Shown here piece after piece: positions 2,446 to 62,462 of a DNA stretch of 64,000 nucleotides (position 1 is its first letter; each line of letters begins with the position of its first letter). Origin of the DNA: Synechococcus sp. GTDB taxonomy: Bacteria > Cyanobacteriota > Cyanobacteriia > PCC-6307 > Cyanobiaceae. The DNA lies in the NCBI GenBank assembly GCA_047284725.1, contig JBJBEO010000001.1:1816203-1880202 (forward strand), read 5' to 3'. A program made the translations under genes and the position numbers. The notes under the pieces are model-generated. The model saw nothing but the letters and a program-made list of their open reading frames with translations, searched no databases and was not told the origin of the DNA.

Positions 2446-3636
2446 ATGCTGGAGAGCTGGTCGGTCGTCATCAACGTGCTTTTGGTGGCATGGTCAGTGC
2501 GGACGTTGATCATCCTTCAACTGGCATTTCGGAACAGAACAGGCGACATCAAGTACAGCAAGGGCGAGCCAACCACAGCCACCAGATCCGACGATGCTCC
2601 GCTGGTCAGCATCATCATCCCTGCCTTCAACGAAGCAGCATCAATCAGCAAGACCGTGTTGTCTTGCCTTCAATCAATGGATGCCAACAAGGAACTCATC
2701 GTTGTTGACGATGGCTCAACCGACGGCACGCGAGCCGTTGCATTCAGCCTGCAACGCCAGCATCCAGAGCACAGGATTCAGGTCATCACCAGCGACCGCA
2801 ATCAAGGCAAGGCCAATGCTCTCAACCTTGGCCTGAACCGGGCCTCCGGTGACATCATCGTGACCGTTGATGCCGACACCCAATTCGAATCGGCCGACAC
2901 CCTCACAGCGTTAGTGCAGCCACTGATCACACAACCAGAGATTGGGGCAACCACAGCCAACCTGAAAATCGCCAACCCAACAACAATGCTGGGCACATTT
3001 CAGGCGATTGAATACGCGAAAATCATTCAGACCCACAAACGCGCGCAAAGCCAGACGCATGCGATTCTGATTCTCCCCGGCGCCTTGAGCTCCTTCAGGC
3101 TACACCTGCTTCGGGCGATCGGAGGGTTCTCCAAGGCGACGCTGGCGGAAGATGCCGATGCCACCATGGCCCTGCTGAAGCAGGGTCATCACGCCTGCCT
3201 CCAAACCCGCGCCTGCGGATTCACCACCGTGCCAACATCCGTTGCGGGCTTCATCAAACAGCGCATCCGCTGGCGTGTTGGTCAATGGCAATGCCTGTGG
3301 AAGCATCGTGCCCTTGCCAGACACTCCTGGGCGACGGGATTTTTCTATCTGGATGTTGTTGCCACGAATGGCATCACCGCTGCAACACCGGCCTTTGTTG
3401 TGATCTCACTCTGGCAAATCATCCATGCAGGCGATGGGCAATCCTGCATCTGGGCCCTCAGCGGATTCGTGGCCACCGACATCCTGGTGACAACCGCAAC
3501 CGCACAACTCGACAGAACCTTCAGGCCCAGCCCGAAGCACTATGCCAACAGCCTGCTCTTCTTTGTGGCCATCAACCCTGTGATCACCTGGCTCTGCCTG
3601 TTCAAATTCTTCACCCAGCGGCCCATTCACTGGTAA
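2446..3636 (+). CDS. processive glycosyltransferase family 2 (PgaC/IcaA/cellulose-synthase-like)
   Basis: VSIIIPAFNE, DDGSTD, GKANALN, DAD, AED and QRIRW motifs; N- and C-terminal TM helices. Confidence 0.92.
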   Translation: MLESWSVVINVLLVAWSVRTLIILQLAFRNRTGDIKYSKGEPTTATRSDDAPLVSIIIPAFNEAASISKTVLSCLQSMDANKELIVVDDGSTDGTRAVAFSLQRQHPEHRIQVITSDRNQGKANALNLGLNRASGDIIVTVDADTQFESADTLTALVQPLITQPEIGATTANLKIANPTTMLGTFQAIEYAKIIQTHKRAQSQTHAILILPGALSSFRLHLLRAIGGFSKATLAEDADATMALLKQGHHACLQTRACGFTTVPTSVAGFIKQRIRWRVGQWQCLWKHRALARHSWATGFFYLDVVATNGITAATPAFVVISLWQIIHAGDGQSCIWALSGFVATDILVTTATAQLDRTFRPSPKHYANSLLFFVAINPVITWLCLFKFFTQRPIHW

Positions 3637-3685
3637 AAGCTCCGAAAGTGATCACGCCACCGTCACAAGATGCCCGAAGGCACCA

Positions 3686-4075
3686 TCACGATGCACCGTC
3701 AATCCAACGGCAGGCCGTATCGGAATCAGAGCTGTAGGAAATCGAGCCATCGCTGTCCTTCCGCCCCGCAAGATTGATGCACCCCTGCTTGCCGCGCACA
3801 TCTTCAATCACGGCCATGAAATCGCAATAGTAATTATTGTTGTAGCTTCCACAACTGTGCGGATTGGAGAAGGTCACCTTGGTGCCGGTATCCCATTCCC
3901 CCTCGTTCAATTCCTTCGTCAGGCTGAAACCAAACTCCTCATAGTCAGCCAGCTCCTTGTAATTGACCGGCAGAGAGAATGTGCCACCCTCCAGCACGGA
4001 ACAGCCCGAAAGGATCAAGCCACAGAGAGCGCCACCAATCGCCAATCGCTTCATCTTCCTGTTGGAAAGACGCAC
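3686..4075 (-). CDS. putative lipoprotein
   Basis: Basic N-terminus, hydrophobic stretch and LSGC lipobox; four further Cys; start probably MKRLAI. Confidence 0.7.
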   Translation of the reverse strand: MRLSNRKMKRLAIGGALCGLILSGCSVLEGGTFSLPVNYKELADYEEFGFSLTKELNEGEWDTGTKVTFSNPHSCGSYNNNYYCDFMAVIEDVRGKQGCINLAGRKDSDGSISYSSDSDTACRWIDGAS

Positions 4076-7096: not shown

Positions 7097-7523
7097 TGCA
7101 CCAAAGACGTGATGTCGCCTTTATCAATAGGCACGCCACACAGCAATGGTTCCATAGGAACATGAGCCCTTGGTGAGAGAACGCGAAGAAATAAATGAAC
7201 GCCCTGCCGGCTGAGCGCATCGAAAGACCGGCATCTTCCAGTCATCTCAGGCTGTCTGGCCACTGCCCAGGCATTGGGATCGAGCGAACACTGCAGGGGG
7301 TGATCCGTGGATCAAGGGCTCAAGGGATGAGGGCAGAGCAGCGACGACTGGTCAGACGCAAGGGCAAGCCAGGCAAAAGTCCCCCATGCCAACGATCACC
7401 TGTGGTGCTTGTGAAAACGCTCGGCCAGGCCGAGCACTCTTTGTTGAGGCAGTGCTACAGAGCCGCTTGATAGTGCGATGGGGGGCTGGCCTTGGGTTTT
7501 CGCGAGGCTGGGCCAATGAAGCA

Positions 7524-7667
7524 TTACTTGGCGATCAGCCTGAAGTAGATCAACAGGATCAACTGCACGGCCACCATCGTCCACAGGGTCTCTGCCTGCC
7601 GGTTGATGAGGAAGGCGGTGAGGCCGATCACCAGAACAACCAGTTGAAGCAGGTCACAAAGTCTCAT
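7524..7667 (-). CDS. small membrane protein (47 aa, below the ORF-track cutoff)
   Basis: MRLCDLLQLVVLVIGLTAFLINRQAETLWTMVAVQLILLIYFRLIAK*, two TM helices. Confidence 0.6.
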   Translation of the reverse strand: MRLCDLLQLVVLVIGLTAFLINRQAETLWTMVAVQLILLIYFRLIAK

Positions 7668-7690
7668 GGCGAGCGGTTGAAACGGCAGCG

Positions 7691-7861
7691 CTAGGGCGAC
7701 GGGAGATCGCCACCATCACCGATCCGGCCCACCACCACAAAGGCACGCCCAGGGTGCGCTTCTGCCGCCTGCCGGCAGGCATCACTCCGACTGGAAGCGC
7801 GCACCACAAAACGCTGCAGGCCACGGGGAGACTCCAGTCTCACTTCATAGGTAGAACGCAT
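7691..7861 (-). CDS. small hypothetical protein
   Basis: MRSTYEVRLESPRGLQRFVVRASSRSDACRQAAEAHPG.., compact beta-beta-alpha pattern. Confidence 0.55.
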   Translation of the reverse strand: MRSTYEVRLESPRGLQRFVVRASSRSDACRQAAEAHPGRAFVVVGRIGDGGDLPSP

Positions 7862-7989
7862 CGCAACCGAGCAGTCCCTCTGTTCTGGCCCAACTGCCCC
7901 TGGAATCTCCAGTGTTGAAACGCTGATCGGCCCCACGATCCGTAGCAATGCTCACTTCGAAGCGCGTCTGGGCAAGGGATAACTGGTTC

Positions 7990-8056
7990 ACCGAAGCGAA
8001 GAGCGTCGGTACTCCTGTTGGGGGGACGAGGCGGGCCTGGAGACCCCGCCTTTTTT
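7990..8056 (+). ncRNA. candidate small RNA with Yfr1-like architecture
   Basis: 5' hairpin ACCGA..TCGGT, then ACTCCT (anti-SD-like), then terminator GGCGGG..CCCGCC-T6; no + strand gene lies immediately upstream. Confidence 0.45.
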
Positions 8057-8143
8057 ATGGCCCGGTTTGATGGCGCGATGCCTGGGGCTGCCAGATCCCA
8101 GCCTTTCGGCCAGGTTGGGTGCAGACGATGGGAGACCTCCGGC

Positions 8144-9646
8144 ATGGGGAGCACCACAGGCCGCCCCGAGGGGGTGAGGCCAGCGATCGCCGGTGGGGAG
8201 GAAGCGCTGCGCCACCTGATGCAAACCGACGATCCGGTGTGGCTGGAGCACACCGACCGGGATCTGGCGACGCTCCGCTCCGGCTTTGCCTGTGCCCTGC
8301 ACATGCATCAGCCCACCATCCCCGCGGGCCGCGACGGCGCGTTGATCTCCCATCTCCAGTTCATGCTGGAGCACCCCGATGAGGGCGACAACCACAACGC
8401 CGAACCGTTTGCGCAGTGCTACCGCCGCATGGCGGATCTGATCCCGCGCCTGATCCACGACGGCTGCAGTCCGCGGATCATGCTCGATTACTCCGGCACC
8501 CTGCTGTGGGGGGTCGAGCAGATGAGGCGCCACGACATCACCGGCGCCCTCCGGTTTCTGGCCTGTGATCCCACCATGCAACGGCATGTGGAGTGGCTCG
8601 GCAGTTTCTGGGGCCATGCCGTGGCCCCCTCCACGCCGATCCCCGATCTGATCCTGCAGATCCAGGCCTGGCAGCACCAGTTCGCGGCCCTGGCCGGCGA
8701 GGCAGCCCTGCAGCGGGTGCGCGGCTTCTCCCTGCCGGAGATGCATCTGCCCAACCATCCCGACACGCTCTACACCCTGATCCAGGCCCTGAAGCAGTGC
8801 GGCTACCGCTGGCTCCTGGTGCAGGAGCACAGCGTCGAAACCCTGCGGGGTGAACCGTTACCGCGCCCGCACACCCTGCTGCCCAACACCCTGATGGCCC
8901 GCAATGCCGATGGCGACACCATCAGCATGCCGGCACTGATCAAGACCCAAGGCTCCGACACCAAACTGGTGGGCCAGATGCAGCCCTGCTACGAAGCGCT
9001 CTCGCTCGACCGCCAACGCCTGGCCGGCACCACCGTGCCGGCTCTGGTGAGCCAGATCGCCGACGGTGAAAACGGCGGCGTGATGATGAATGAATTCCCC
9101 GCGGCGTTCGAGCAGGCCCATCGGCGGATCCAGGCCGATGGCTCAGCCACCGTGGCCATCAACGGCAGCGAATACCTTGAGCTGATCGCTGCGGCAGGCA
9201 TCGATGAAGCCGACCTGCCGAGGATTCAGGCCTCTGGCCAGCACCGGCTCTGGCAACAGCTGGGGGCCGACCGCGGAGCAGACGCCGTCCATGCCGCCAT
9301 CGAGGCGTTGCAGCAAAGCGATCCCGGCTTTGCCATGGAAGGTGCGTCCTGGACCAACAACCTCAGCTGGGTGAAGGGGTACGACAACGTTCTGCAGCCG
9401 ATGCAGCAGCTCAGCGCCCGCTTTCACCAACGCTTCGACGCGGAGCTGCTCGCCAACCCCCTGCGCAGCCGCGATGACGACTATCAGCAGGCTCTCCTCC
9501 ACCTGCTGCTGCTGGAAACCAGTTGCTTCCGCTACTGGGGGCAGGGCACCTGGACCGACTACGCCCGCACCATTCACCAACGCGGAGAGGCCCTGCTGGA
9601 GATGCCTCCACCCTTTGAGGCATGCGCCAGCGATCAAGCCGGTTGA
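8144..9646 (+). CDS. glycoside hydrolase family 57-like protein
   Basis: ALHMHQP N-terminal motif, DYSGTLL, GFSLPEM, DGENGGVMMNEF, ETSCFRYWG. Confidence 0.85.
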   Translation: MGSTTGRPEGVRPAIAGGEEALRHLMQTDDPVWLEHTDRDLATLRSGFACALHMHQPTIPAGRDGALISHLQFMLEHPDEGDNHNAEPFAQCYRRMADLIPRLIHDGCSPRIMLDYSGTLLWGVEQMRRHDITGALRFLACDPTMQRHVEWLGSFWGHAVAPSTPIPDLILQIQAWQHQFAALAGEAALQRVRGFSLPEMHLPNHPDTLYTLIQALKQCGYRWLLVQEHSVETLRGEPLPRPHTLLPNTLMARNADGDTISMPALIKTQGSDTKLVGQMQPCYEALSLDRQRLAGTTVPALVSQIADGENGGVMMNEFPAAFEQAHRRIQADGSATVAINGSEYLELIAAAGIDEADLPRIQASGQHRLWQQLGADRGADAVHAAIEALQQSDPGFAMEGASWTNNLSWVKGYDNVLQPMQQLSARFHQRFDAELLANPLRSRDDDYQQALLHLLLLETSCFRYWGQGTWTDYARTIHQRGEALLEMPPPFEACASDQAG

Positions 9647-9934: not shown

Positions 9935-10174
9935 TCAGTCGGCCACCGACTCCCCATCGTCTCGCTGACGACAGGATTTCTCCCGCCATGCTGACGCCGC
10001 CAACAGGATCACTAGCACCGTGGGTTCTGCCGCACGGCCTGGATCGGCGAGCACCGTCTCCATCAGAGCGAAGGAGCCGACAGCAACGCCACCACCCATC
10101 ACTGTCGCGGTCAGCACCGAGGCGATGCCGCAGGCAATCGGGTTGGTCTTCAGCACGGTGTTCATCACAGCCAC
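9935..10174 (-). CDS. small membrane protein
   Basis: Hydrophobic ORF (NPIACGIASVLTATVMGGGVAVGSFAL..VLVILLAAS). Confidence 0.5.
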   Translation of the reverse strand: MAVMNTVLKTNPIACGIASVLTATVMGGGVAVGSFALMETVLADPGRAAEPTVLVILLAASAWREKSCRQRDDGESVAD

Positions 10175-10331
10175 GCCGCTGCCTTCACCATGGCCTCAGT
10201 CCCGCGCAAAGAACAGGTCTTTGGCGGAGAAGGACGGAATCTCTTCCGGTTCTCCACACCCGATCCTCCGCTCTGGGTAGAACTCCTGCTGCGATTGTCC
10301 GTGCGAGACAGCCGCTGTCTGCACTGAGTTG

Positions 10332-11654
10332 ATGGCCTCCCCCTCCCAAGTCCAGCCCCTACCGAGCACAGGCGCCCGCTTGGGCTTGCTTGAGGGACTG
10401 GCCTTTTTTCGCGATCCCCTCTTCGCCCAGACACGCTTCGCGCGGTTCGGTGATGTGTTTGAAACATCGCTCATGGGCCAGCGCTTGGTGTTCATCCGTG
10501 GTGATGCCGCCATCAGCGAGCTGCTCAGCCAGTCCGACGCCCTGGAGGGCTGGTGGCCCGACAGCGTTCGTCGCCTGCTGGGCAGCCATTCGCTCGCGAA
10601 CCGCAGCGGTGCTGCCCACAAAGCGCGGCGCAGGGTGGTGGGGCAACTGTTTTCAGCCGCAGCCCTTCAGCGCTACAGCCCGGCGATCATTGCGCTGGTG
10701 AACGAACTGGCCGCCGAACTCAACGCCAGCCCGTTGCCGATCCCTCTGGCGGATCGGATGCGTCGGTTCGCCTTCTCCGTGATTGCGTCGGTTGTGCTGG
10801 GGCTCGACGACCACGACCGCGACGCTCTCTTCGGCGACTTTGAGATCTGGACCAAGGCCCTCTTTTCAGTGCCTGTGGCCATCCCTGGCAGCCCCTTCGC
10901 CAGAGCCCTGAAAGCCCGCAGTCGTCTACTGAAGCGCCTCAAAGGCGTCCTTCAGCGTGCCGACTGCAGCCGTGGCGGCCTCGATCTCCTCGCCGGCGGA
11001 CTCGACGAAGCCGGCATTCCCCTCAGCGATGACGATCTGGTGGAACAGCTGCTGCTGCTGCTGTTTGCGGGCTACGAAACAACGGCATCATCGCTGAGCT
11101 GCCTGATGCTGGAGCTGTTGCAGCAACCAGCCCTCGCCACCTGGTTGCGCGAGGAAACCGATCCGCTGCCATGGCCCCCAGCTGGCGATCAGGCCCCAGG
11201 GGCCTACGACCGCAACCGAGCTCCCCGGCTCGAGGCCCTCGTGCAGGAGGTGATGCGGATGACGCCTCCGGTGGGCGGCTTTTTCCGGCGCACCACCAGG
11301 CCCATCACCCTGGCCGGTGTGACCGTGCCCACCGATCGGGTGATCCAGGTCTCCCTCGCGGCCTCCAACCGCCACGGCCCAGGCGACCTGGAGGTCTTCC
11401 GTCCCCAACGCCATCTGGAGACCACGGGCGATCTGCCGATGCTGATGCCCTTTGGAAGTGGCGAACGGATCTGCCTGGGTAAGGCTCTGGCCGAACTGGA
11501 AATCCGCCTGATGGTGGTGGGGCTCTTGCATCAGGTGGATCCAACCCTCACGCCCGATCAGGATGTAACGCTGCAACTGATTCCCAGCCCCATCCCCCGG
11601 GACGGATTGAAAGTGCAAGCATCTACGGGTGGTTCGGGGCGAGCGGATGCATGA
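10332..11654 (+). CDS. cytochrome P450
   Basis: I-helix FAGYETT, K-helix EVMR, heme motif FGSGERICLG. Confidence 0.96.
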   Translation: MASPSQVQPLPSTGARLGLLEGLAFFRDPLFAQTRFARFGDVFETSLMGQRLVFIRGDAAISELLSQSDALEGWWPDSVRRLLGSHSLANRSGAAHKARRRVVGQLFSAAALQRYSPAIIALVNELAAELNASPLPIPLADRMRRFAFSVIASVVLGLDDHDRDALFGDFEIWTKALFSVPVAIPGSPFARALKARSRLLKRLKGVLQRADCSRGGLDLLAGGLDEAGIPLSDDDLVEQLLLLLFAGYETTASSLSCLMLELLQQPALATWLREETDPLPWPPAGDQAPGAYDRNRAPRLEALVQEVMRMTPPVGGFFRRTTRPITLAGVTVPTDRVIQVSLAASNRHGPGDLEVFRPQRHLETTGDLPMLMPFGSGERICLGKALAELEIRLMVVGLLHQVDPTLTPDQDVTLQLIPSPIPRDGLKVQASTGGSGRADA

Positions 11655-11838
11655 CCTGCGCTGGTTGCTGCTGGCCTGGGGTGTCCTGGCCCTGGCAGCG
11701 GCCGTGAAATTTGCCCGTTTGGCTCGGCAGATGCGCGGCAGCCTCGGAGCCGGCGCCACCGGTCTCCGTCCAGACCGCCCGCTCGAAGACAGCCAGAAGG
11801 TGAGGGAACAGCTGGAAAGGGCCTGGCTGCGCAAGTGA
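11647..11838 (+). CDS. small membrane protein
   Basis: MHDLRWLLLAWGVLALAAAVKF..REQLERAW; overlaps the P450 stop, suggesting translational coupling. Confidence 0.65.
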   Translation: MHDLRWLLLAWGVLALAAAVKFARLARQMRGSLGAGATGLRPDRPLEDSQKVREQLERAWLRK

Positions 11839-12227
11839 TGCCCTGGAAGGGAGACGAGTGAAGCGGCACTGACGGCTGCAACCCGTGGTCTGACCCCAAC
11901 CCAGGCCGCGATCCTTCTGCCGTGATCTCAAGACATGGTGGTCAGTTCCCCTTACTGCTCTTAACTTGATCTTTACCTGCTGTTGTCCTGGATGGACGGA
12001 GCCCACAGCCGACTCGTCAAGCTTGAAGCCAAGGCCTATCGCTGCCTCTCGCGCCAGGAAGCCCAGCGCATCCTGCGTGAAGCCGACCAGCTCAGGGGCT
12101 CCCTCAGCGCGAGCACTGGCCACGCGAACGCAAACGACGTCGCCTGAGGCGCTTCACCAACAACGTTGACAAAGGTCTGACAAGGCTGCCGTCGTTGTCT
12201 ATTGCTGGGATCAGCACGACCAAGCCC

Positions 12228-12995
12228 ATGCGCCGCACCGTTTCCTCCCTCGCCGTTGCGGGTTTGCTACCCGTTGCCTTGGGAGTTCAGTCGCCCGCTC
12301 TGGCGCAGGTGGGTGGCGTGGCCCCCCGCCAGCCCGTCACGGTCGCCGTCAAAGAGATCACCAATTCTGCGTCAGGCGTGTGGTGGTGGAGCCCGTCGGT
12401 GTCGAAAAAACTCACCGACATGCTCGCCAATGAGCTGAAGTCGAGCGGCAATTTCACCCTAGTGGAGCGACAGAGGCTCAATCAGGTGCTGAGCGAGCAG
12501 GAACTGGCGGAGCTGGGAATCACCCGCCAGAGCACAGCCCCGAAGCGAGGCATGATGACCGGCGCCAAGTACTACGTACTGGGCAGCGTCAGTGACTACC
12601 AGGAGAACGTCGAAACCAAGAGCGGTGGCGGCGGCTTCAACATCATGGGCTTCGGTCAGCGCAAGACCTCGAATCAGAGCAAGGCCTACGTGGCCCTTGA
12701 TATCCGCGTGGTCGACACCACAACAGGAGAGATTGCCTATGCCCGCACCATCGAGGGCAAAGCCACATCAACGTCCACCTCCACCTCGTCCAGCGGCGGC
12801 CTCTACGGCCTTTCCTTCAGCGATTCCCAGTCTTCATCCAACAAAGTGCCAGCATCCAAGGCCGTACGTGCCGCGATGATCGAAGTGGGCGACTATCTCA
12901 ATTGCGTGCTCTATCTGCGCAACAGCTGCATCGCTGACTACGACCGCAAGGAACGCAACCGCCGGGAGGCCACCAGAGACGTTCTCGAATTCTGA
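12228..12995 (+). CDS. CsgG/HfaB family protein
   Basis: Signal peptide; LTDMLANEL..GNFTLVER..L..VLSEQEL, GAKYYVLGSVSDY, VALDIRVVDTTTGEI motifs. Confidence 0.88.
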   Translation: MRRTVSSLAVAGLLPVALGVQSPALAQVGGVAPRQPVTVAVKEITNSASGVWWWSPSVSKKLTDMLANELKSSGNFTLVERQRLNQVLSEQELAELGITRQSTAPKRGMMTGAKYYVLGSVSDYQENVETKSGGGGFNIMGFGQRKTSNQSKAYVALDIRVVDTTTGEIAYARTIEGKATSTSTSTSSSGGLYGLSFSDSQSSSNKVPASKAVRAAMIEVGDYLNCVLYLRNSCIADYDRKERNRREATRDVLEF

Positions 12996-52292: not shown

Positions 52293-53033
52293 ATGGCCCA
52301 ACATTCATCCAAATCTCCCTGGAAGGGAAAGCGAGTCGGCATCACCGGGGCCCGTGGTGCGCTGGGCCAGGCCCTCTGCCGGCAGTTTCAACAACGCGGA
52401 GCCAAGGTGGTGGGCTTCAGCCATGGCCCGCGTCCCGACACGGCTGATCCCCGGTCCATCCCCCAGGAATGGGTGCAATGGAGCTGCGGGCAGGAACACC
52501 AACTGGATCCCGTGCTCGCAACTCTTGACCTGTTGGTGCTGAACCATGGCATCAATCCTGGAGGTGATCAGCGACCCGAAACGATCACAACCGCTCTCCA
52601 GGTCAATGCTTTGAGCAGCTGGGCTTTGATCAATCGGTATGAAGCGATCGCCGCGGCCGCCCCTCTCGACGATGGCCGTCGCGACCTCTGGGTGAACACC
52701 TCCGAAGCGGAGATTCAACCAGCCTTAAGCCCTGGCTATGAACTGAGCAAACGCCTGATCGGTCAGCTGGTGAGCTTGCGATGGAGCCAACGCAGCCCCA
52801 GGGATCAGGCCTCATTGCGCCTCAGGAAGCTGGTGCTTGGCCCATTCAAGTCGGACCTCAATCCAATCGGGCTGATGTCGGCGGATTTTGTGGCGCAACA
52901 AGTGATCACTCAGGCGTCGTGGGGCCTCAGCCTGATCGTCGTCACGCCGAATCCACTGACGTATGTGTTTCTCCCCCTGAACGAACTGGGGCGTTCGCTG
53001 TACAACCGCTGCTTCAATCGCCCCGATCGGTGA
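52293..53033 (+). CDS. short-chain dehydrogenase/reductase
   Basis: [26 protein letters not shown]. Confidence 0.9.
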
Positions 53034-53853
53034 GGATGTCGCAGCCATCGGAAGTGACCACGATGGTGTGTTCCCACTGGGCCGACAAGCTGCCGTCCTT
53101 GGTGACGACGGTCCAGCGGTCTTTGAGGGTGCGGCAATGCTTGCTGCCTGCATTGAGGATGGGTTCCACAGCCAAGGTCATGCCCGGACGCAGGATGACA
53201 TTGGGAAGGTCGTCGGTGCGGAAGTTGAAGACCGAAGGCTCTTCGTGCAAATTACGGCCCACCCCATGACCGGTGTAATCCTCCACCACACTGAAACCAT
53301 TGGCGACAACGTGATCTTCCACAGCACCGGCGATATCCAGCAGCGTGTTGCCGGCCTTGATTTTTGAGAGACCAGCCATCAATGACTCACGAGCCACACG
53401 ACTGAGGGTCTGCGCCTCTTCAGAGGCGTCACCGACGCAGATGGTGACGCAGCTGTCACCGTGGTACCCGTCGAAATAAGCACCCGTATCCACTTTGAGT
53501 AAGTCGCCGTTGCGAATCACACGCTTGGCATTCGGGATGCCATGCACCACCTCGTTGTTGATGCTGGCGCAGATACTGGCCGGGAATCCGTGATAGCCCT
53601 TGAAACTGGGAGTCGCGCCCATCTCTCGGATGCGGCGTTCAGCGATGGCATCCAGATCACCTGTGGTCATGCCGGCCTGAACAGAGCCCATGATTTCGCG
53701 AAGCACCGTCGCGACGATCCGACTCGCCTCGGCCATGATTTTGAGTTCACGGGCTGATTTCACCTCCACACCACGACGCTGCTGGATGCGGGGCCCCGTG
53801 GCCGTGGCCCTGCCGCCATTGGAGGCAGCAAGAAGATCAGCAAAAAGATTCAT
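53014..53853 (-). CDS. map: methionine aminopeptidase type I
   Basis: [46 protein letters not shown]. Confidence 0.97.
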
Positions 53854-53969
53854 CGCATCGCGTGGGGTGAGGATGACCGGTGGAGAACGGCAGGGCTGGC
53901 GTGATCTCCGCAGTCATGTCGGCATGGCTGGTTTCACGCTATCAATAGCTGCATCATCTGGAGGGTTCG

Positions 53970-54284
53970 ATGGCTTGGCTGCGACGGATCCGCCAGCTGC
54001 ATCGCTGGGTAGCGCCCTTCGTCCTGCTCCCGCTCCTGATCACGTTGACAACAGGCATGGCCTATCGCCTGCTCAAGGACTGGGCAGGCCTTGAACGGGA
54101 TCAGGTGCACTGGCTAATGGCGCTGCATGAAGGGGAATGGCTGGGTCCCCAGCTGGAACCGGCGGTCGTTCTGCTCAATGGCATAGGACTGCTATGGATG
54201 CTGATCACAGGTGGAGCCATGGTCTGGCAGCAGTTCCGCCTTGCTCGCCCTGCTTCAACAGATCAGGGGCAGGCGAAAGGGTAA
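53970..54284 (+). CDS. PepSY-associated TM helix protein
   Basis: RQLHRWVAP..PLLITLTTG..WLMALHEG..ITG. Confidence 0.8.
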   Translation: MAWLRRIRQLHRWVAPFVLLPLLITLTTGMAYRLLKDWAGLERDQVHWLMALHEGEWLGPQLEPAVVLLNGIGLLWMLITGGAMVWQQFRLARPASTDQGQAKG

Positions 54285-54317
54285 GCTGGTTGTTTGGCGT
54301 GATTACCCGGAGCTGGG

Positions 54318-54791
54318 ATGGCAGCGGATCCGAAAGAGACTTCCTCAACGGAAGAGACCACTGACGTGGCAACCAGCGATGTGGCCGTTGCAGACGCACC
54401 CGCCAAGGTCAACAGTGCTGCTTCAGGGGTGAAACTCAGCGCACAGCAGCTGATTCACGAATTTGAAGCAGCTCAGCAGAAATCCGAGCTCCCAGATATT
54501 TACGTGGGTGACACCGTCAAGGTGGGTGTTCGCATCAGCGAGGGCAATAAGGAGCGAGTCCAACCCTACGAAGGTGTGGTGATTGCCAAGCGCCATGGAG
54601 GCATCAATGCCACCATCACGGTGCGTCGCATTTTCCAGGGAATCGGCGTTGAGCGTGTGTTCATGCTTCACAGCCCCCAGGTGGCCTCCATCAAGGTCGA
54701 GCGTCGCGGTAAAGTACGTCGGGCGAAGCTTTTCTACCTGCGAGACCGAGTGGGCAAGGCCACTCGTGTGAAGCAGCGCTTCGACCGCTGA
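54318..54791 (+). CDS. rplS: 50S ribosomal protein L19
   Basis: [44 protein letters not shown]. Confidence 0.98.
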
Positions 54792-54853
54792 GGCCACGGC
54801 CTCACCCCGTCCAACAATCGTTGCTTTGCAATGGTCGAGGGGATCATCGCCTT

Positions 54854-54926
54854 GCGCCGTTAGTTCAGTTGGTAGAACGCAGGTCTCCAAAACCTGATGT
54901 CGGGGGTTCGAGTCCTCCACGGCGCG
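54854..54926 (+). tRNA. trnW: tRNA-Trp (CCA)
   Basis: Acceptor GCGCCGT/ACGGCGC, anticodon arm CAGGT-CTCCAAA-ACCTG, GGTTCGAGTCC T-arm. Confidence 0.98.
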
Positions 54927-54962
54927 TCCGATGACCCCTCATGCACTTTCCTGAGTTCGAGC

Positions 54963-55151
54963 ATGGAGTTAGATCTTCAACCTGGTGATGTTGTGAAGGT
55001 GCTCGAATCAGCCGCCCTCGGCTGGGTTCGGGCCCGTGTGATTCGTGTCAAATCAGGCGGCAGGGTCGTTGTTCAAAGCGATCAAGGCCGTGAGTTCACA
55101 GCCCGCGGCAATCAGGTACGCCTGATTGAGCCAGCAGGGTTCCGTCCCTGA
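54963..55151 (+). CDS. Prochlorococcus/marine Synechococcus hyper-conserved protein (PSHCP/HCP)
   Basis: MELDLQPGDVVKVLESAALGWVRARVIRVKSGGRVVVQSDQGREFTARGNQVRLIEPAGFRP, in the known position after rplS-tRNA-Trp. Confidence 0.95.
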   Translation: MELDLQPGDVVKVLESAALGWVRARVIRVKSGGRVVVQSDQGREFTARGNQVRLIEPAGFRP

Positions 55152-55173
55152 CAGTTCTCATTGATGGACTGTG

Positions 55174-55198
55174 ACCTCGCCCAAGGGCGGGGTTTTTT
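55174..55198 (+). terminator. intrinsic terminator after HCP
   Basis: ACCTCGCCC-AA-GGGCGGGGT-TTTTT. Confidence 0.8.
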
Positions 55199-55560
55199 CA
55201 TGCCTGCATCTGCCCATGCGCTTCGGCCGTGGCCTGGCCCATGTTTTGCGAGCACAGGTGGAGTCCAGCTGGTTGACCTGATGCAACCACAACAGATCGA
55301 ACATGCCGCCGAAAACCGGCAGCTCTCAGGAAATTCACAGACATGCCTCAGCAGCCATTCATTGGCGGCACCCTTTTCTGAGCGATGGTGTGGTGGAGAG
55401 AAAGGCAGCCCTGAGAGCAGGTTCCACGCTGCCGACCAGAGGCCAATTATTAAGAAAGTGTCAAGCCCTTGCGCAAGGCTTTGTAGCGTGCCATCATGAG
55501 TTCAAGGGAGGGAACACTCCCCCCTCATGCACAGCTCCTTTCTCTCACCCGAGCTTTCAA

Positions 55561-56019
55561 ATGAAAAACTTCAAAGCACTCGTTGCCGGTCTTGTTGCGC
55601 TGGGCGCCTTTGCTCCTGCAGCTTTCGCCGACACTTCTGATAGCACCAAGTTCCAGTATACTCGTTCATTCGCTTGTGACATTGCAGCCGACGATTCGAC
55701 GGTCGCGATGACCAAGACTGGCGACCAACTTGATGGTAGCACTGGTTTGACTGTCACTGGTGACACAAGTCTCGCCAAAGTGACTGTCCAAGTTGGAGAC
55801 ACTTCAGCCAGCGAAAATGTCACCCTCCAAGCGGGCTCGGCAATTGTGACACTTGACGGCGTTTCTTCGGAAGCAGTCACTGGATCTGGCGGCAGCAAGT
55901 CTGACAATTTCGTGCACACCTCCGTCGCGAGCGCTATGACCCTTAGCGCTCAAGTCACGGGTGCTACTGCTCTTGGCTTGTATGAAATCCCAGTCGAGGT
56001 GACCTGCGCCGAAGCTTGA
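55561..56019 (+). CDS. secreted beta-rich, fimbrial major subunit-like protein (152 aa)
   Basis: Sec signal (..APAAFA|D), Thr/Ser/Gly/Val-rich, Cys near the mature N-terminus and C-terminal GLYEIPVEVTC. Confidence 0.75.
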   Translation: MKNFKALVAGLVALGAFAPAAFADTSDSTKFQYTRSFACDIAADDSTVAMTKTGDQLDGSTGLTVTGDTSLAKVTVQVGDTSASENVTLQAGSAIVTLDGVSSEAVTGSGGSKSDNFVHTSVASAMTLSAQVTGATALGLYEIPVEVTCAEA

Positions 56020-56068
56020 TTGATTTTCATCAGCTAACCAAAGGGAACACAGTCTCTTTGCAACTATT

Positions 56069-56099
56069 AAAAGAGAGGGGCTTTACACCCCTCTTTTTT
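56069..56099 (+). terminator. intrinsic terminator between the subunit-like and chaperone-like genes
   Basis: AAAAGAGAGGGG-CTTTACA-CCCCTCTTTTTT. Confidence 0.85.
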
Positions 56100-56130
56100 A
56101 TGCTACTTTTCAAATATCTAGGCTCTTAAC

Positions 56131-56511
56131 ATGATCCTTGAAGGTGCTCTTCTTGCTGCAGCATTGCAAATCAAAGGCCCCGACGTTTTAACGCGCAATA
56201 TAAAAAATGAATCCCAAGTGAGAGGCTATGCCGAAGCCGACCAAGGTAAACCTGGTGTTTACACCATCACCATTCACACTGCAGATGGAGAAGGAGTTGG
56301 AGAAGAGATCATTCCTATCACCATCCTCCCGAAAAAGCTAATACTTAAGGAAAAGAGACCGAGAACATTTTCTATGAAATTTTCACTCTCCGAAAACTAC
56401 GAAGGTCCGGTTTACTTTTGCATTAAACGAAAAAATGATCCCGGCGAAAAAGCCGGAGGACTCAGAATTAGAACTCGCACATGCTATAAGAGATCGATAC
56501 TTGCCAAATAG
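56131..56511 (+). CDS. small basic beta-rich protein, possibly a single Ig-like fimbrial chaperone-like domain
   Basis: ILPKKLILKEKRPRTFSM resembles the PapD_N 'P..f.L.pg....v.v' segment; C-terminal YFC..RTC Cys pair. Confidence 0.65.
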   Translation: MILEGALLAAALQIKGPDVLTRNIKNESQVRGYAEADQGKPGVYTITIHTADGEGVGEEIIPITILPKKLILKEKRPRTFSMKFSLSENYEGPVYFCIKRKNDPGEKAGGLRIRTRTCYKRSILAK

Positions 56512-56516
56512 ACCGC

Positions 56517-57047
56517 ATGACTCACTGCAACATCAAAATGTTTCGCCCCAAGGCAATTAATTTCAGATTATTTTTCCTGCTATTTGCTTATTGCTTTTTT
56601 CCTGCAAATGCCTTCTCTCAAATAACAACTTTTGAGCCAGTCACTGGCACGTCCAACGAACTTCTTCTCGATGATTTGGGGCTCTCCTCCATACAACAAC
56701 CAGAAGGAAGAACATTTACTCTTGAACTGCCTGATGGATTAGTTTGCGAATCAACTGATGGAACTCCACCTTCACTGAATCTCTATGCAGGCACATCAGA
56801 TCGAACCAATTCATTTCAACGCTCCAGCGATTATTACACGGGAGGCATTGGTGCAGGTGCTGTAGTTTCAATACCTTTGAACACAAAAGAAAAAAGAAAC
56901 TGTGATGCAGCTTACAAAAGCTATTTAAATTCGAAGCAACTTGAAACAGCCCAATTGCTCTACGAGCTCGGGGTCATGAATGACGACGAACTTCAAGAAT
57001 TCGCAAACCGCATCAAAGATTTGCTTATTAATTCAAGCCAAAATTAA
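56517..57047 (+). CDS. secreted hypothetical protein (beta hairpin + C-terminal helices)
   Basis: Signal peptide (..PANAFS); GLVC..SLNLYAG..GIGAGAVVSIPL..RNC..Y; start may be 56538. Confidence 0.75.
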   Translation: MTHCNIKMFRPKAINFRLFFLLFAYCFFPANAFSQITTFEPVTGTSNELLLDDLGLSSIQQPEGRTFTLELPDGLVCESTDGTPPSLNLYAGTSDRTNSFQRSSDYYTGGIGAGAVVSIPLNTKEKRNCDAAYKSYLNSKQLETAQLLYELGVMNDDELQEFANRIKDLLINSSQN

Positions 57048-57056
57048 AATATCTGG

Positions 57057-57302
57057 CTACCGATCGTTAACTTTACAACCAATAAGGTCTTCGCCTCCCA
57101 AATCAGAAACGAAATAGCGACAAGTTTCCACAATAGTTTCCTCAACCTTAAAACGAAATATTACCCGAACGCTTTTTTTTTCGATACCTGCTACTCGATG
57201 CCTCTCACTATTTATGCCATTTTGTATGAGTACAAAAGAAAAAATCAGCACAAGAACCACAAGAGTGCAATAATATACTGATTTTTTTTGCATCATTCTC
57301 AA
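57057..57302 (-). CDS. small membrane-anchored protein with a Cys pair
   Basis: N-terminal TM; ETC..GC; AT-rich. Confidence 0.5.
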   Translation of the reverse strand: MRMMQKKSVYYCTLVVLVLIFSFVLIQNGINSERHRVAGIEKKSVRVIFRFKVEETIVETCRYFVSDLGGEDLIGCKVNDR

Positions 57303-57315
57303 GCCTTAAACTTTG

Positions 57316-57603
57316 CTATTGCAACTTTTTATGCAAGGTCTCTGTTGAAACTCTCCCGTTAGTCAAATCAATACAAGAGACAGAAGTCACTGTATCTAAA
57401 GGTTGATTGGCTAAGAAATTACTTGCAGCATTTAGGCAAATGCTATGTCTTTGAAATTGAAAAGCGACGGCATCTATTGTACTAGAGCCTTGAGTTCTCA
57501 CCTGAATAACCATTTGCGACCGCGCCATCACTGGCGCAGAGGCAAAGGCTAAAAGCATCAATTGTGAGAGTGGAGCCCAAGCGAAAAGCCGCAACCGTTT
57601 CAT
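57316..57603 (-). CDS. small secreted protein with a Cys pair
   Basis: Signal peptide (..SAPVMA); FQRHSICLNAA..VSCID. Confidence 0.6.
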   Translation of the reverse strand: MKRLRLFAWAPLSQLMLLAFASAPVMARSQMVIQVRTQGSSTIDAVAFQFQRHSICLNAASNFLANQPLDTVTSVSCIDLTNGRVSTETLHKKLQ

Positions 57604-57772
57604 AAAATCGATCTAATTAGAATTGAACGCGAACTGGTCAGGATGCCAGCGAAAAACCAATTTCGCCCATAACGACAAACAATTGAGAAATTGAGAGGCT
57701 TCAGAGCAAACAGGGAAATCCCTTTTCCTTCTTAGCTTGAGAACAAACAATTCACAAGGCTGCATGAAGTTT

Positions 57773-57952
57773 CTATGCAAAGTTTTGCTCTCCAAACGAC
57801 TCAATCTCCATCATGATTGAACTCATGGCAGGCGTAGCAACTTGAATGCTGCGGCCAAACCCTTGACGCAACCTTTGATCCAAGTCAAGCAAGCTGACAG
57901 CCTCTTGCGACTTTAGAGATCCATACACCTCAAACTGCTTGATCCCCGCCAT
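57773..57952 (-). pseudogene. possible degenerate MntA-type minimal nucleotidyltransferase
   Basis: GIKQFEVYGSL..EA and SLLDL..L..FGRSIQVATP resemble MNT segments, but the DxD catalytic segment is absent. Confidence 0.3.
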
Positions 57953-59346
57953 GCACGGATCAAGCCCGTGATTGACCGACAAAGCATGGAGCGGCAGCGC
58001 AGCCCGGCGACCTGACCCACGCCATCACCATCAGGGCCTGTTCCTTGATGGGCCTGAATCGGGCAGCAAGCAATAAAAAAGGCGCCCATGCAGGCGCCCC
58101 TTTCTCTCAAGACCAACATCGCGCACATCGATGCCCGGTCAATGGGTGGCCACTGAGAGCTATCTGTGAATTACCTGAGAGTCCTGGTGGACGGTTGCAG
58201 AGGCGGCCCCTGCTATCGCCGTCCCGCCCCCGCCATGCACGGATCAAGCCCGTGATTGACCGACAAAGCATGGAGCGGCAGCGCAGCCCGGCGACCTGAC
58301 CCACGCCATCACCATCAGGGCCTGTTCCTTGATGGGCCTGAATCGGGCAGCAAGCAATAAAAAAGGCGCCCATGCAGGCGCCCCTTTCTCTCAAGACCAA
58401 CATCGCGCACATCGATGCCCGGTCAATGGGTGGCCACTGAGAGCTATCTGTGAATTACCTGAGAGTCCTGGTGGACGGTTGCAGAGGCGGCCCCTGCTAT
58501 CGCCGTCCCGCCCCCGCCATGCACGGATCAAGCCCGTGATTGACCGACAAAGCATGGAGCGGCAGCGCAGCCCGGCGACCTGACCCACGCCATCACCATC
58601 AGGGCCTGTTCCTTGATGGGCCTGAATCGGGCAGCAAGCAATAAAAAAGGCGCCCATGCAGGCGCCCCTTTCTCTCAAGACCAACATCGCGCACATCGAT
58701 GCCCGGTCAATGGGTGGCCACTGAGAGCTATCTGTGAATTACCTGAGAGTCCTGGTGGACGGTTGCAGAGGCGGCCCCTGCTATCGCCGTCCCGCCCCCG
58801 CCATGCACGGATCAAGCCCGTGATTGACCGACAAAGCATGGAGCGGCAGCGCAGCCCGGCGACCTGACCCACGCCATCACCATCAGGGCCTGTTCCTTGA
58901 TGGGCCTGAATCGGGCAGCAAGCAATAAAAAAGGCGCCCATGCAGGCGCCCCTTTCTCTCAAGACCAACATCGCGCACATCGATGCCCGGTCAATGGGTG
59001 GCCACTGAGAGCTATCTGTGAATTACCTGAGAGTCCTGGTGGACGGTTGCAGAGGCGACCCCTGCTATCGCCGTCCCGCCCCCGCCATGCACGGATCAAG
59101 CCCGTGATTGACCGACAAAGCATGGAGCGGCAGCGCAGCCCGGCGACCTGACCCACGCCATCACCATCAGGGCCTGTTCCTTGATGGGCCTGAATCGGGC
59201 AGCAAGCAATAAAAAAGGCGCCCATGCAGGCGCCCCTTTCTCTCAAGACCAACATCGCGCACATCGATGCCCGGTCAATGGGTGGCCACTGAGAGCTATC
59301 TGTGAATTACCTGAGAGTCCTGGTGGACGGTTGCAGAGGCGGCCCC
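57944..59346. repeat. tandem array with a 284-bp period, about 4.94 copies (five 267-bp cores + four 17-bp linkers)
   Basis: Cores start at 57944, 58228, 58512, 58796, 59080; linker TGCTATCGCCGTCCCGC; only difference noticed is G>A at 59058. Confidence 0.97.
58075..58103 (-). terminator. terminator inside each repeat unit (recurs every 284 bp)
   Basis: Minus strand AAAGGGGCGCC-TGCATG-GGCGCC-TTTTTT. Confidence 0.75.
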
Positions 59347-59716
59347 GAAACAAGCCTTCGCGAAAAGCCTCGCAAGACGGTCATGTTTCCGGGTTATTGA
59401 CAGACACCCTGTCTTCGGCGGAATAGCGCCACGTTGACGCTTGCTGATCGAAGTCCGATCCCAGGCGATTCTGCCGGCCTGCGTCCGTCTCCGGTTCCGC
59501 TTCATGGGCACAAAGCCTTGGACTGGCCTCGCCTCGAGTCGACCAGACCAGCCAGAACACGGGTGAACACTTCGCGTCACTGACAACCGTTTGAGGCATC
59601 CACCAGCTGATTCAGGCAGTTGGTTGACGGAGGGCAGGGCTGAGGTCGATACTTTCTGAGTCGCGCAAGCGATGCAGGGCAATCGCAGGTGAAGTCGCAC
59701 CTGACGATGCATGCCT

Positions 59717-59790
59717 GGGACCGTAGTTCAATTGGTTAGAGCACCGCCCTGTCACGGCGGAAGTTGCGGGTTCGAGCCCCGTCGGTCCCG
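59717..59790 (+). tRNA. trnD: tRNA-Asp (GTC)
   Basis: Acceptor GGGACCG/CGGTCCC, anticodon arm CCGCC-CTGTCAC-GGCGG, GGTTCGAGCCC T-arm. Confidence 0.98.
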
Positions 59791-59810
59791 TTCCAAACCT
59801 CCACACCACC

Positions 59811-61244
59811 GTGTCGGTTCGCGTTCGTCTGGCTCCAAGCCCTACAGGAACCCTCCATATTGGAACGGCTCGAACAGCGGTTTTCAACTGGTTGTTTGCG
59901 CGCAACAGCGGCGGATCCTTCCTCCTTCGCATCGAAGATACCGACCGCGAACGATCCAAGGACGCCTTTACCGCCAACATCCTCGAAGGCTTGCAGTGGC
60001 TTGGCATCAACTGGGACGAAGAGCCCGTCATCCAAAGCAAGCGGATTGCCGATCACCGTGCGGCGATCCAGACGCTGCTTGATCGGGGCTTGGCCTACCG
60101 CTGCTACGCCAACGAACGTGAGCTTGAGGCCATGCGCAAGGCCCAGAAAGCCGCCAATCAGGCCCCCCGCTACGACAACCGCCACCGTGATCTAACCCCT
60201 GAGCAGGAAGCGGCTTTCCAACAGGAAGGCAGAGATGCAGTGATCCGTTTCCGCATCGATGACAACGCCGAAATCCGCTGGACCGACCTCGTCAGAGGCC
60301 CCATGAGCTGGCGGGGTGCGGATCTCGGTGGCGACATGGTGGTGGCCCGCAGGGCTCCAGCCGATCAGATCGGAGATCCCCTCTACAACCTTGTGGTGGT
60401 GGTGGATGACGCGGCGATGGCGATCACCCATGTGATTCGAGGCGAAGACCACATCGCCAACACCGCCAAGCAACTGCTGCTCTACGAAGCACTAGGCCTC
60501 TCCAAACCGACTTTCGCCCACACACCGCTGATCCTGAACTCCGAAGGGCGCAAATTGTCCAAGCGTGATGGAGTCACCTCCATCAGCGACTTCCGCTCGA
60601 TGGGCTACACCGCTGATGCGATCGCCAACTACATGACGTTGTTGGGCTGGTCTGTACCGGAAGGAATGGAGGAGCGCTTCACCCTGGCTCAAGCGGCTGA
60701 GGTCTTCAGTTTCGATCGTGTCAATAAAGCGGGTGCCCGCTTCGACTGGGACAAACTCAACTGGCTCAATGCCCAGGTTCTCCACGAGCAGACTCCCGAG
60801 CAGCTCTTGGCTGCACTCGAACCGCTCTGGTCTGAACAGGGCTGGACGCTCCCCAACGACCGCAACTGGTCGCTTGCGCTGTGTGAACTGCTTGGCCCCT
60901 CCCTGACCCTGATCAAAGACGGAATCGATCAAGCGGCTCCGTTCTTTGCAGAACCGCCCCTCGAAGACGATGCCGTCAAACAACTGGAGCAGGAAGGGGC
61001 CCGCAACGCCCTGAAGGCGCTGCTCTCAAACCTCGACGCCAGCCCTTGGGATGGCATCAACCGTGACGAGGGCCAAGAGCTGCTGGCCAACGCAGTCAAA
61101 ACCGCTGGTGTGAAGAAAGGGGTGTTGATGAAGTCCCTGAGGGCCGCCTTGCTCGGACGACTGCAAGGTCCTGACCTGATGACCACCTGGGGGCTACTGG
61201 CCAGACTCGGGGCTGACCGTCAACGCATTCACCGCAGCGTCTGA
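59811..61244 (+). CDS. gltX: glutamate--tRNA ligase
   Basis: [13 protein letters not shown] (HIGH-like), [21 protein letters not shown] (KMSKS-like). Confidence 0.98.
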
Positions 61245-62462
61245 GCCTCCCTCCTCCATGCCTGCTGGCTCCGGCTCCACCAAACCGAGCATCTGGGCCA
61301 AGGGTTGAGCCGTCAATCCCTGCAGGCCAACGGTCATCAGGATCGTGAGAAAGACCAGACCCTGAAGACGACCAGCACCCAACACCCCTGCCTGCTCCAG
61401 GCGAATGGCGAAAAGGGAGGCCACTGCCGCCGTGACGATGCCGCGGGGAGCGAGCCAGCCCATGAACAAGCGCTGCCGCCAGTCCAGGGGAAGACCAATC
61501 GTGGCGAGTCCCACAGCTGCCGGGCGCACCACCAGCATCAAGAGAAGCACACAGCTCACACCTCCCCAACCGAGCGGACTGAGCTCTGCCCAGGACACAT
61601 CAGCGGCAAGCAAAGGGAACAACATCGTGATCGCCAAACGCGCCAACTCACGGATCAGCTCATCCAGCTGAGCCGCCTCCGTGAAGGGCCTGCGGCCAAC
61701 AACGAAACCAGCGGCCACGGAGGCCGGCAGCCCAGATTCCGGCAACAACCATTCACAGGTGCCGAACATCAGAAACAGTGCCCCAAGCGTGATCTGGAGC
61801 CGGAGCCCGACTGCAGGGTCGGGGCGTAAACGGCGCAGCGCTTCCGATAACAGCCAGCCGACGCCGAGACCAATCACCACCCCACCACCGAGCCGAGCCA
61901 TCAAACCGATGGCCAGCTCTCGCCAGCCATGCAGATTGCCCAGCAGCAATTCCAGCAACAGCAGGGCCAACACAGCTCCCACAGGCTCCAACACCAACCC
62001 TTCAGCTTCCAGCACATCTCCGAGGGGAGAAGCGAGGCGTATCTGCTGAATCAACGGTGTGACCACCGTCGGGCCTGTCGCCAGCACGATGGCGCTGTAC
62101 ACCGCTGCCACCGACCAGCTGAGCCCCGCCAACCAGTGCGCGGCACACAAGCCGGCAACAAGAGACAGCAGCAAACGGATCACGGAAATCCGGAGCACGG
62201 TTGCTTTGATCGTGTCTCCGGGAAGACGCAGGTTGAGGCCCCCGTCAAACAAGACAAGGCTGACGAGTAAACCCACCACCGTCGCCAGCCCCTGGCCGAG
62301 ATCCAGAGGCTCCACCAGCCCAAGGCCAGAACGCCCGATCAGCAAGCCCGACAGCAGCAGCAGCACCACGCCCGGTAACCCCGACAACGCTGCCAGCAGG
62401 CGTGCGGAGGCCCCGGCAAACACCGTGACCCCCCACAACAGCCCCAGCCGTTCAGGCGTCAT
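61194..62462 (-). CDS. CPA1/NhaP-type cation:proton antiporter
   Basis: [41 protein letters not shown]. Confidence 0.92.

Follow-up and report, generated by a model that had tools for sequence, protein, structure and literature searches.

Our findings highlight a previously overlooked set of three small genes, here termed g1, g2 and g3, located at positions 55561-57047 of a 64,000-nucleotide stretch of the Synechococcus sp. genome (contig JBJBEO010000001.1, positions 1,816,203 to 1,880,202, part of a complete 2.58-Mb genome and referred to here as the window). The trio is a mobile module that is common to the genomic islands of picocyanobacteria and to T4-like cyanophages, and its products appear to be exported, disulfide-bearing proteins of complementary charge, with the subunit encoded by g1 and the g3 protein acidic and the g2 protein basic. 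We tentatively propose, at somewhat less than an even chance, that g1, g2 and g3 represent an usher-independent, horizontally mobile and conserved module for a cell-surface structure, and that the copy in the window is one whose subunit gene has been swapped and is divergent.

The recurrence of the three genes together is central to this proposal. In a sample of 401 genomes from the family of the window's organism, profile searches returned 24 g2-like and 26 subunit-like matches, and at a cut-off of E<=0.01 the g3 search returned 28, comprising 24 matches, one weak match (in genome G216) and three doubtful ones that fall inside frames of 396-479 amino acids (aa) at E 0.005-0.009. All three genes are found in the same 24 genomes, and in 24/24 their coordinates place them next to each other on one strand, with the subunit gene directly upstream and the g3-like gene directly downstream of the g2-like gene, thus bearing out the conserved trio that the initial annotation had anticipated. 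Maps of the open reading frames (ORFs) in fetched loci of 11-20 kb agree on this order in 14/14 cases; the flanks vary by locus and hold no conserved large ORF. The weak match in G216 represents a 25th, divergent copy (L054:3216-5569) with the same gene order and a proline-rich C-terminal tail on g3. Near this copy are two ORFs that resemble LuxR-type response regulators, and another subunit-like ORF, which lacks Cys.

The spacing of the genes adds to this picture. In the window g3 starts 5 nt past the g2 stop codon, and in all 14 of the other loci the ORFs of g2 and g3 share 41-130 nt in different reading frames (judged from the longest ORFs; e.g., L019:9420-10225). The n-regions of the g3 signal peptides fall within this overlap, which argues for coupled translation. 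The subunit gene is separated from g2 by 3-13 nt in relatives rich in guanine and cytosine (GC), and a terminator behind the subunit gene as a device for setting stoichiometry is not general to the module. In four AT-rich loci an AraC-type regulator (HTH_18) is added, followed by a signal-peptide protein of 302-342 aa with a weak, below-cut-off match to an outer-membrane barrel family (Phenol_MetA_deg, E 0.0014). This barrel-like protein has no match in the window's genome, and the window's copy has no AraC-type regulator alongside, though the genome itself was not searched for the regulator. In a word-based search of 5.8 billion proteins, g2 and g3 relatives (65-69% identical) were found on a shared 19-kb metagenome contig. 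A scan of genome contigs with query A7 gave four Synechococcus loci from metagenome-assembled or single-amplified genomes plus three chance hits, one of them a Pseudoflavitalea FecR-type protein; scans of metagenome contigs with A6 and P0053, and of genome contigs with A6, returned no relatives. The initial annotation also mentioned similar trios in Vibrio; none turned up, though no search aimed at Vibrio was made.

The module is also carried by phages. A loose tblastn search with the g3 core led to Synechococcus phage S-B68 (E 0.04), in which three consecutive coding sequences (CDSs), all annotated as hypothetical, follow a tail-fiber gene, the third matching the g3 profile at E 1e-37. A second phage trio, with overlapping g2 and g3, is present on IMG/VR contig L057, which also has a plastocyanin-like ORF. 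Comparison of the host families with the two phage proteins by hhalign gave probabilities of 89.7% for the subunit (E 1.8e-6), 67.4% for g2 (E 5e-5) and 99.0% for g3 (E 5e-18), versus 0.1-0.4% for all four mismatched control pairs. The gene order is the same in both trios. Picocyanobacterial islands and T4-like cyanophages therefore have the module in common. The marine phage trios that the initial annotation had mentioned are represented by one cyanophage genome and one viral contig. The g3 structural model matched three BFVD entries at E<=1e-3, one of which is from Synechococcus phage S-CAM7; weaker matches came from Prochlorococcus phages P-SSP10 and P-SSP3 and from uncultured marine phages, with low TM-scores of 0.2-0.3. 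This fold search and the loose tblastn were the only searches to lead to the phages. By BLAST the trio is rare in sequenced phages (1/50,697 records): whole g3 found no tblastn match in these records at E<=1e-3, nor did a first scan of viral contigs, and tblastn with the phage g3 returned S-B68 alone.

This carriage brings forward an alternative that we consider somewhat unlikely, namely that the trio is a phage-derived module for envelope modification or exclusion, which would mask or alter receptors without forming a polymer, either during infection or permanently from a host island, and so guard against other phages or grazers. The placement of the trio just after a tail-fiber gene in S-B68 and beside a plastocyanin-like ORF in the viral contig is compatible with such a role, as are the variable islands and changing sites of the host copies. 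So too is the subunit, the most variable member of the trio (16-27% identity to g1), and the GC content of the window's g1, which is unlike that of g2 and g3. However, each locus holds one to three paralogous subunits whose N- and C-terminal strand motifs are conserved, as in sets of pilins, and the Ig-like partner resembles fimbrial chaperones. Furthermore, no known exclusion family was matched, PADLOC not having been searched.

In the window, the features that the initial annotation listed for the three genes and the terminator are all present at the positions given in Table 1. The RNA between g1 and g2 has a fold energy of -27 kcal/mol (z = -2.78), equaled in stability by 1 of 200 shuffled sequences. 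The GC content is 0.54 in g1, 0.43 in g2 and 0.41 in g3, and 0.58-0.60 in the flanking housekeeping genes. Chance ORFs were rejected as an explanation for g1-g3 because each protein belongs to a conserved family and these families recur together in fixed synteny. None of the three families (window proteins and relatives scanned) matches Pfam, NCBIfam or any PDB sequence, and profile searches of the PDB with the three families returned no match below E 0.2. RNA-labelled libraries from two studies yielded contigs that contain pieces of all three genes. Of the four runs, X1 and X2 carry a flag as probably DNA, and as contigs of this kind cannot prove transcription, rank expression or show transcript ends, the indication of expression is weak. 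Coverage is lacking at 55926-56141 in X1 and X2 and at 55008-55400 in all four runs. Contig starts at 56169-56170 (codon 13 of g2) in three runs from the two studies, preceded in one run by Illumina adapter letters, may mark either a processing site or the 5' end of an RNA.

Table 1. Features of the trio, its setting in the window, and related loci discussed in the text.
Sequence	Feature	Coordinates	Strand	Description
Window	g1	55561-56019	+	152 aa; exported, acidic, beta-rich subunit; divergent member of the subunit family found upstream of g2-like genes
Window	Terminator-like stem-loop	56068-56100	+	13-pair stem, 7-nt loop, T run; 3' of g1
Window	g2	56131-56511	+	126 aa; basic, single-domain Ig-like protein (PapD-like/ASH-type fold, predicted); two conserved Cys
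Window	g3	56517-57047	+	176 aa; signal peptide; conserved Cys77 and Cys129
Window	Insertion	55153-59610		4.46 kb, strain-specific; trio, two small reverse ORFs and 284-bp tandem array; between tRNA-Trp side and tRNA-Asp
Window	Left flank	53000-55152		map, rplS, tRNA-Trp
Window	Right flank	59611-61300		tRNA-Asp, gltX
Window	Small ORF	57057-57302	-	AT-rich, downstream of g3
Window	Small ORF	57316-57603	-	AT-rich, downstream of g3
Window	Tandem array	57944-59346		284-bp unit, 4.9 copies, 99-100% identical, GC ~0.61; just upstream of tRNA-Asp
L014	Extra genes, AT-rich locus	7512-9539		AraC-type regulator, then signal-peptide protein
L015	Extra genes, AT-rich locus	10086-12092		as above
L016	Extra genes, AT-rich locus	7799-8827		as above
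L017	Extra genes, AT-rich locus	10358-12242		as above
Phage S-B68	Trio	2355-2885, 2889-3290, 3305-3733		CDSs of 176, 133 and 142 aa
IMG/VR contig L057	Trio	2645-3211, 3208-3666, 3450-3896		ORFs; g2/g3 overlap

At least one flank of the insertion was matched in 29 of the 30 other genomes of the genus, and where both flanks lie on one contig they are 101-1,074 bp apart, versus 4,458 bp in the window's genome, so that the trio sits on a strain-specific insertion. GC content falls to 0.36-0.43 at positions 56000-57800. Related trios occupy other sites in three genomes of the genus (G309, G341 and G417); since the window's insertion is absent from the same site elsewhere in the genus and the trio is found elsewhere in these three genomes, the module is mobile. 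Besides the trio, the insertion carries two reverse ORFs, one of 81 aa with a hydrophobic segment and one of 95 aa with a signal-peptide-like start, neither of which matches Pfam or NCBIfam, and the tandem array, which is found nowhere else in the genome. Each 284-bp unit holds overlapping ORFs of 84 and 101 aa whose meaning is doubtful. Rfam matched the two tRNAs only and assigned no family to the array.

The g1 protein begins with a Sec signal peptide, MKNFKALVAGLVALGAFAPAAFA, and its mature part of 129 aa is acidic (isoelectric point, pI, 4.1) and 38% Ser, Thr and Gly. It has two cysteines, Cys39 near the mature N-terminus and Cys149, the latter within a C-terminus (G-L-Y-E-I-P-V-E-V-T-C-A-E-A) that agrees with the pattern G-x-Y-x3-V-x-V-x-C. 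Alignment of g1 with the subunit family A3 by hhalign gave a probability of 95.9% (E 5.5e-9, 143 columns), and the A3 profile has g1 as its sole match in the window's own genome (E 7.1e-10). In a joint alignment g1 and the family share an invariant Cys, Gly59, Tyr141 and the C-terminal T-C. Across the family, pI is below 6 in 15 of 19 subunits and the mature part has exactly two Cys in 19/19. The divergence of g1 is reflected in single-sequence searches: the word-based search of 5.8 billion proteins returned g1 alone, and g1 was matched neither by phmmer in 40 relatives nor by jackhmmer in the 14 trio loci. In another genome, the trio subunit gene has an in-frame TGA (G391:C35:12612-13085) and may be a pseudogene or reflect a sequencing error. 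None of the 19 subunits has a match in Pfam, the pilin family SCPU (PF05229) included (0/19). Subunit profile A8 aligned with cyanobacterial SCPU at 87.3% when signal peptides were included, a score that is inflated by those signal peptides. In a search with the ESM language model, the rank-8 neighbor cluster of g1 was 50% SCPU (score 0.94). Judged from its sequence, g1 would seem to resemble SCPU pilins weakly.

The chaperone and the usher that characterize chaperone-usher pili were both looked for. Neither the usher (PF00577) nor the chaperone domain PapD_N (PF00345) was matched in any of five complete genomes with the trio (0/5 each), the window's included, while the control genomes were matched, E. 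coli and Deinococcus in the case of the usher. The window locus has no usher-sized gene, and across 14 loci the trio has no conserved neighboring ORF longer than 600 aa. The absence of an usher, as noted in the initial annotation, thus holds, and the trio is not a chaperone-usher system. True SCPU genes are present in 4 of 251 cyanobacterial genomes, where they adjoin a 260-aa two-domain chaperone and an usher; they are absent from the window's genome and from seven other sampled genomes of its family. The canonical SCPU loci used as comparators (L044-L053, from G539, G490, G636 and G510) come from a few cyanobacteria outside the picocyanobacteria and have an usher fragment beside them. In Synechocystis, a review places the usher gene slr0019 elsewhere in the genome, outside the operon of cccS (SCPU) and cccP (PapD_N) (PMC4390875). 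By analogy, the trio could be a degenerate archaic (SCPU-type) chaperone-usher system with its usher elsewhere in the genome, and the SCPU-like subunit termini (the 87% score with signal peptides) and the half-SCPU ESM cluster would fit this. However, the lack of usher and PapD_N matches in genomes where the controls were positive, the two-domain chaperone and usher that adjoin true SCPU genes, and the absence of SCPU from the sampled family genomes leave this explanation barely credible and close to refuted.

What the trio has in common with archaic pili (the sigma, Csu/SCPU-type class, including CccS-CccP-Slr0019) concerns mainly the subunits, which are Sec-exported, acidic and beta-rich, occur as one to three paralogues, and have a conserved N-terminal strand that ends in Cys, along with a G-x-Y...T motif at the C-terminus; the window's copy also has a terminator after the subunit gene. 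There are several differences. The five complete trio genomes are without an usher or PapD_N match, the chaperone of archaic pili has two domains (~230 aa) whereas g2 has one (~114 aa), trio subunits fail the SCPU model, the obligatory g3 has no counterpart in chaperone-usher operons, and the trio is phage-carried.

The g2 protein has a pI of 9.7 (residues 13-126) and the motifs YFC (Cys97) and RTC (Cys118). The family as a whole (alignment A2) is basic (18/18, pI 9.7-11.1) with exactly two Cys in 18/18 members. In the AlphaFold2 model (predicted local distance difference test, pLDDT, 76.1; predicted template modeling score, pTM, 0.71) g2 forms an all-beta sandwich whose last strand is preceded by a disordered loop (residues 104-114). 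Domain 1 of PapD-type chaperones and generic Ig domains match this model equally well, and Foldseek also returns MSP and ASH/PapD-like domains; the Ig-like character proposed for g2 is thus supported by a sandwich comparable to domain 1 of the chaperones in chaperone-usher systems. Sub-threshold Pfam hits in the family are to Cep192_D3 (3/18) and HYDIN_VesB Ig (2/18), with TMEM131L Ig domains also appearing, and PF00345 matches 0/18 members at E<=10. On the strength of the model, the fold of g2 is probably PapD-like in the broad sense, with g2 a candidate rather than an established member of the chaperone family.

The g3 protein carries a signal peptide followed by Cys77, the motif SLNLYAG, GIGAGAVVSIPL and RNC (Cys129). 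Its family (alignments A1 and A4) is acidic, and the mature part contains two Cys, no more and no fewer, in 17/17 members; some relatives bear a Pro-rich C-terminal tail. Out of 1.84 billion entries, 117 representatives belong to the family at E<=1e-3. Across 401 genomes of the phylum, profile A4 gave seven matches, four of them in the window's own family, to which g3 is thus almost restricted. The A4 match in G774 is a different Pro-rich protein and was rejected, and the subunit profile matched 0/51 genomes of G774's family. The AlphaFold2 model of g3, made from 66 sequences (pLDDT 78.0, pTM 0.50; core pLDDT 88-98), shows two beta-hairpins, with strands at residues 66-70, 76-80, 86-96 and 108-118, and a helix-turn-helix, with helices at 130-150 and 156-175, giving a structured core of ~115 aa in which the first beta-hairpin is predicted to be short. 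Foldseek against the PDB and further fold searches gave no whole-fold match to this model.

The initial annotation had proposed that the long hairpin of g3 oligomerizes into an outer-membrane pore or anchor for a g1 fiber. In its favor are the two 11-residue strands of the hairpin (86-96 and 108-118), which have a conserved Gly-rich motif and a hydrophobic face of alternating residues, the weak Foldseek matches to OprM/TolC-type channels (E 0.5-0.9, probability 0.1-0.2) and the Pro-rich tail of some relatives, a feature also seen in periplasm-spanning proteins. However, the monomer is modeled with confidence as a compact alpha+beta domain, this acidic protein lacks any membrane-like segment apart from its signal peptide, and the channel matches, which are far from significant, cover helices in the second fold search. 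The pore or anchor is thus without support and we consider it very improbable.

A different comparison is offered by the cyanobacterial tubular (CT) pilus of Microcystis aeruginosa (MrpC or 'TEK-like protein', PDB 9BTQ). CT pilin is described as having a mature mass of 12.3 kDa and as consisting of a pair of long beta-hairpins and a helix-turn-helix; its gene cluster also encodes a putative adhesin, rich in beta structure, and a porin-like protein, and how the pilus is made is stated to be unknown (PMC12397347). The order of elements in the g3 model is that of CT pilin as described, and the predicted topology of g3 may therefore be said to recall this pilin, apart from the short first hairpin. 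The same paper notes that AlphaFold models of homologues depart from the solved structure in domain orientation, and reports no CT pilin homologue in the marine picocyanobacterial strain that it discusses; the supplement rows are mainly from Microcystis and Nostocales, with a single Snowella and a single Merismopediaceae entry and none from Synechococcus (PMC12397347). This raises the possibility, in our view decidedly unlikely, that g3 is itself the polymerizing pilin of a CT-pilus-like fiber, with g1-type proteins as adhesins or minor parts and g2 as the chaperone of g3. Apart from the similar size and elements of the g3 core and of CT pilin, the translational linkage of g2 and g3 would suit such an arrangement, as would the parallel between the adhesin and porin-like protein of the CT cluster (PMC12397347, in the part cited) and the beta-rich subunit and the sub-threshold barrel-like protein of the four AT-rich loci. 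On the other hand, there is no detectable sequence similarity: NCBIfam TEK-like models match 0/66 members of the g3 family at E<=1, and profiles A1 and A4 found no 9BTQ chain at E<=10. 9BTQ was also not among the matches listed in three fold searches with the g3 model, the listed matches being helical hairpins. The glycosyltransferase and methyltransferase genes of the CT cluster have no recognized equivalent at the trio loci, with no glycosyltransferase (O-GlcNAc transferase) or FkbM gene recognized within 5 kb in 14 loci, where most flanking ORFs were not scanned with Pfam, and none among the ORFs of the window. Overall, the two systems are alike in having a beta-rich putative adhesin in the cluster, in the barrel-like outer-membrane protein carried by some trio relatives, in a biogenesis without a known machine, and in being confined to cyanobacteria; they differ in sequence, in the modification genes and in the extra Ig-like g2 of the trio.

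Returning to the proposal that we favor, a usher-independent surface structure would be produced in the following way. All three products would cross the Sec system into the periplasm and become disulfide-bonded, and g2 would act there as a holdase for the subunit, for g3 or for both. The abutting or overlapping genes would supply g2 and g3 in a fixed ratio, and the subunit or subunits, together with g3 as a base, assembly factor or co-polymer, would build a surface-exposed fiber or coat without a canonical usher, thereby altering the cell surface. Several observations weigh against this proposal. The window's island has no assigned outer-membrane pore. The g2 protein is a single domain of ~114 mature residues, the second chaperone domain is missing, and its alignment with a true cyanobacterial two-domain chaperone scores 7.9%. 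Its export is less certain in the window and in AT-rich relatives, since the N-terminus there is short and hydrophobic and has no positive charge. The link between g1 and pilins, as read from sequence, would depend on motifs, a single weak profile match and a single lead from a language model, and without signal peptides the comparison of the subunit with SCPU drops to 12% (P 0.0024), although it is collinear end to end. Lastly, carriage by lytic phages fits a role in infection that needs no fiber.

The division of labor proposed here has a parallel in curli, in which CsgC and CsgE are small proteins of the periplasm that each have a single domain. One is an Ig-like sandwich containing a Cys pair, and the other is a small alpha+beta protein. 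These proteins prevent early polymerization of the secreted fiber subunit and pass it to the pore. The trio differs in lacking both a lipoprotein pore like CsgG and an amyloid subunit of the repeat type, and curli proteins turned up as neither sequence nor fold matches in the searches that were run.

Marine picocyanobacteria are major primary producers, and their cell surface governs how they sink, are grazed and become infected by phages. In the literature cited here, the type IV pilus is the one pilus that is named for this group (10.1101/2020.07.09.194837), and no description of the trio was found in searches of an open-access library. The module is mobile, shared with cyanophages and composed of three families for which neither Pfam nor NCBIfam has a model. 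Having a second surface-structure module would open island-encoded surface variation, and the reshaping of host envelopes by phages, to study. The trio may also bear on the assembly of the CT pilus, which its discoverers state to be unknown in the sections cited (PMC12397347). A bolder extension, which we regard as unlikely, is that the trio represents an undescribed usher-independent pathway for a surface fiber or coat, in which a PapD-like chaperone of one domain is combined with a CT-pilin-like protein, and that it serves cyanophages as an auxiliary cassette for remodeling the host surface during infection and has been captured repeatedly on picocyanobacterial islands. If true, this pathway would link the biology of chaperone-usher systems with that of tubular pili.

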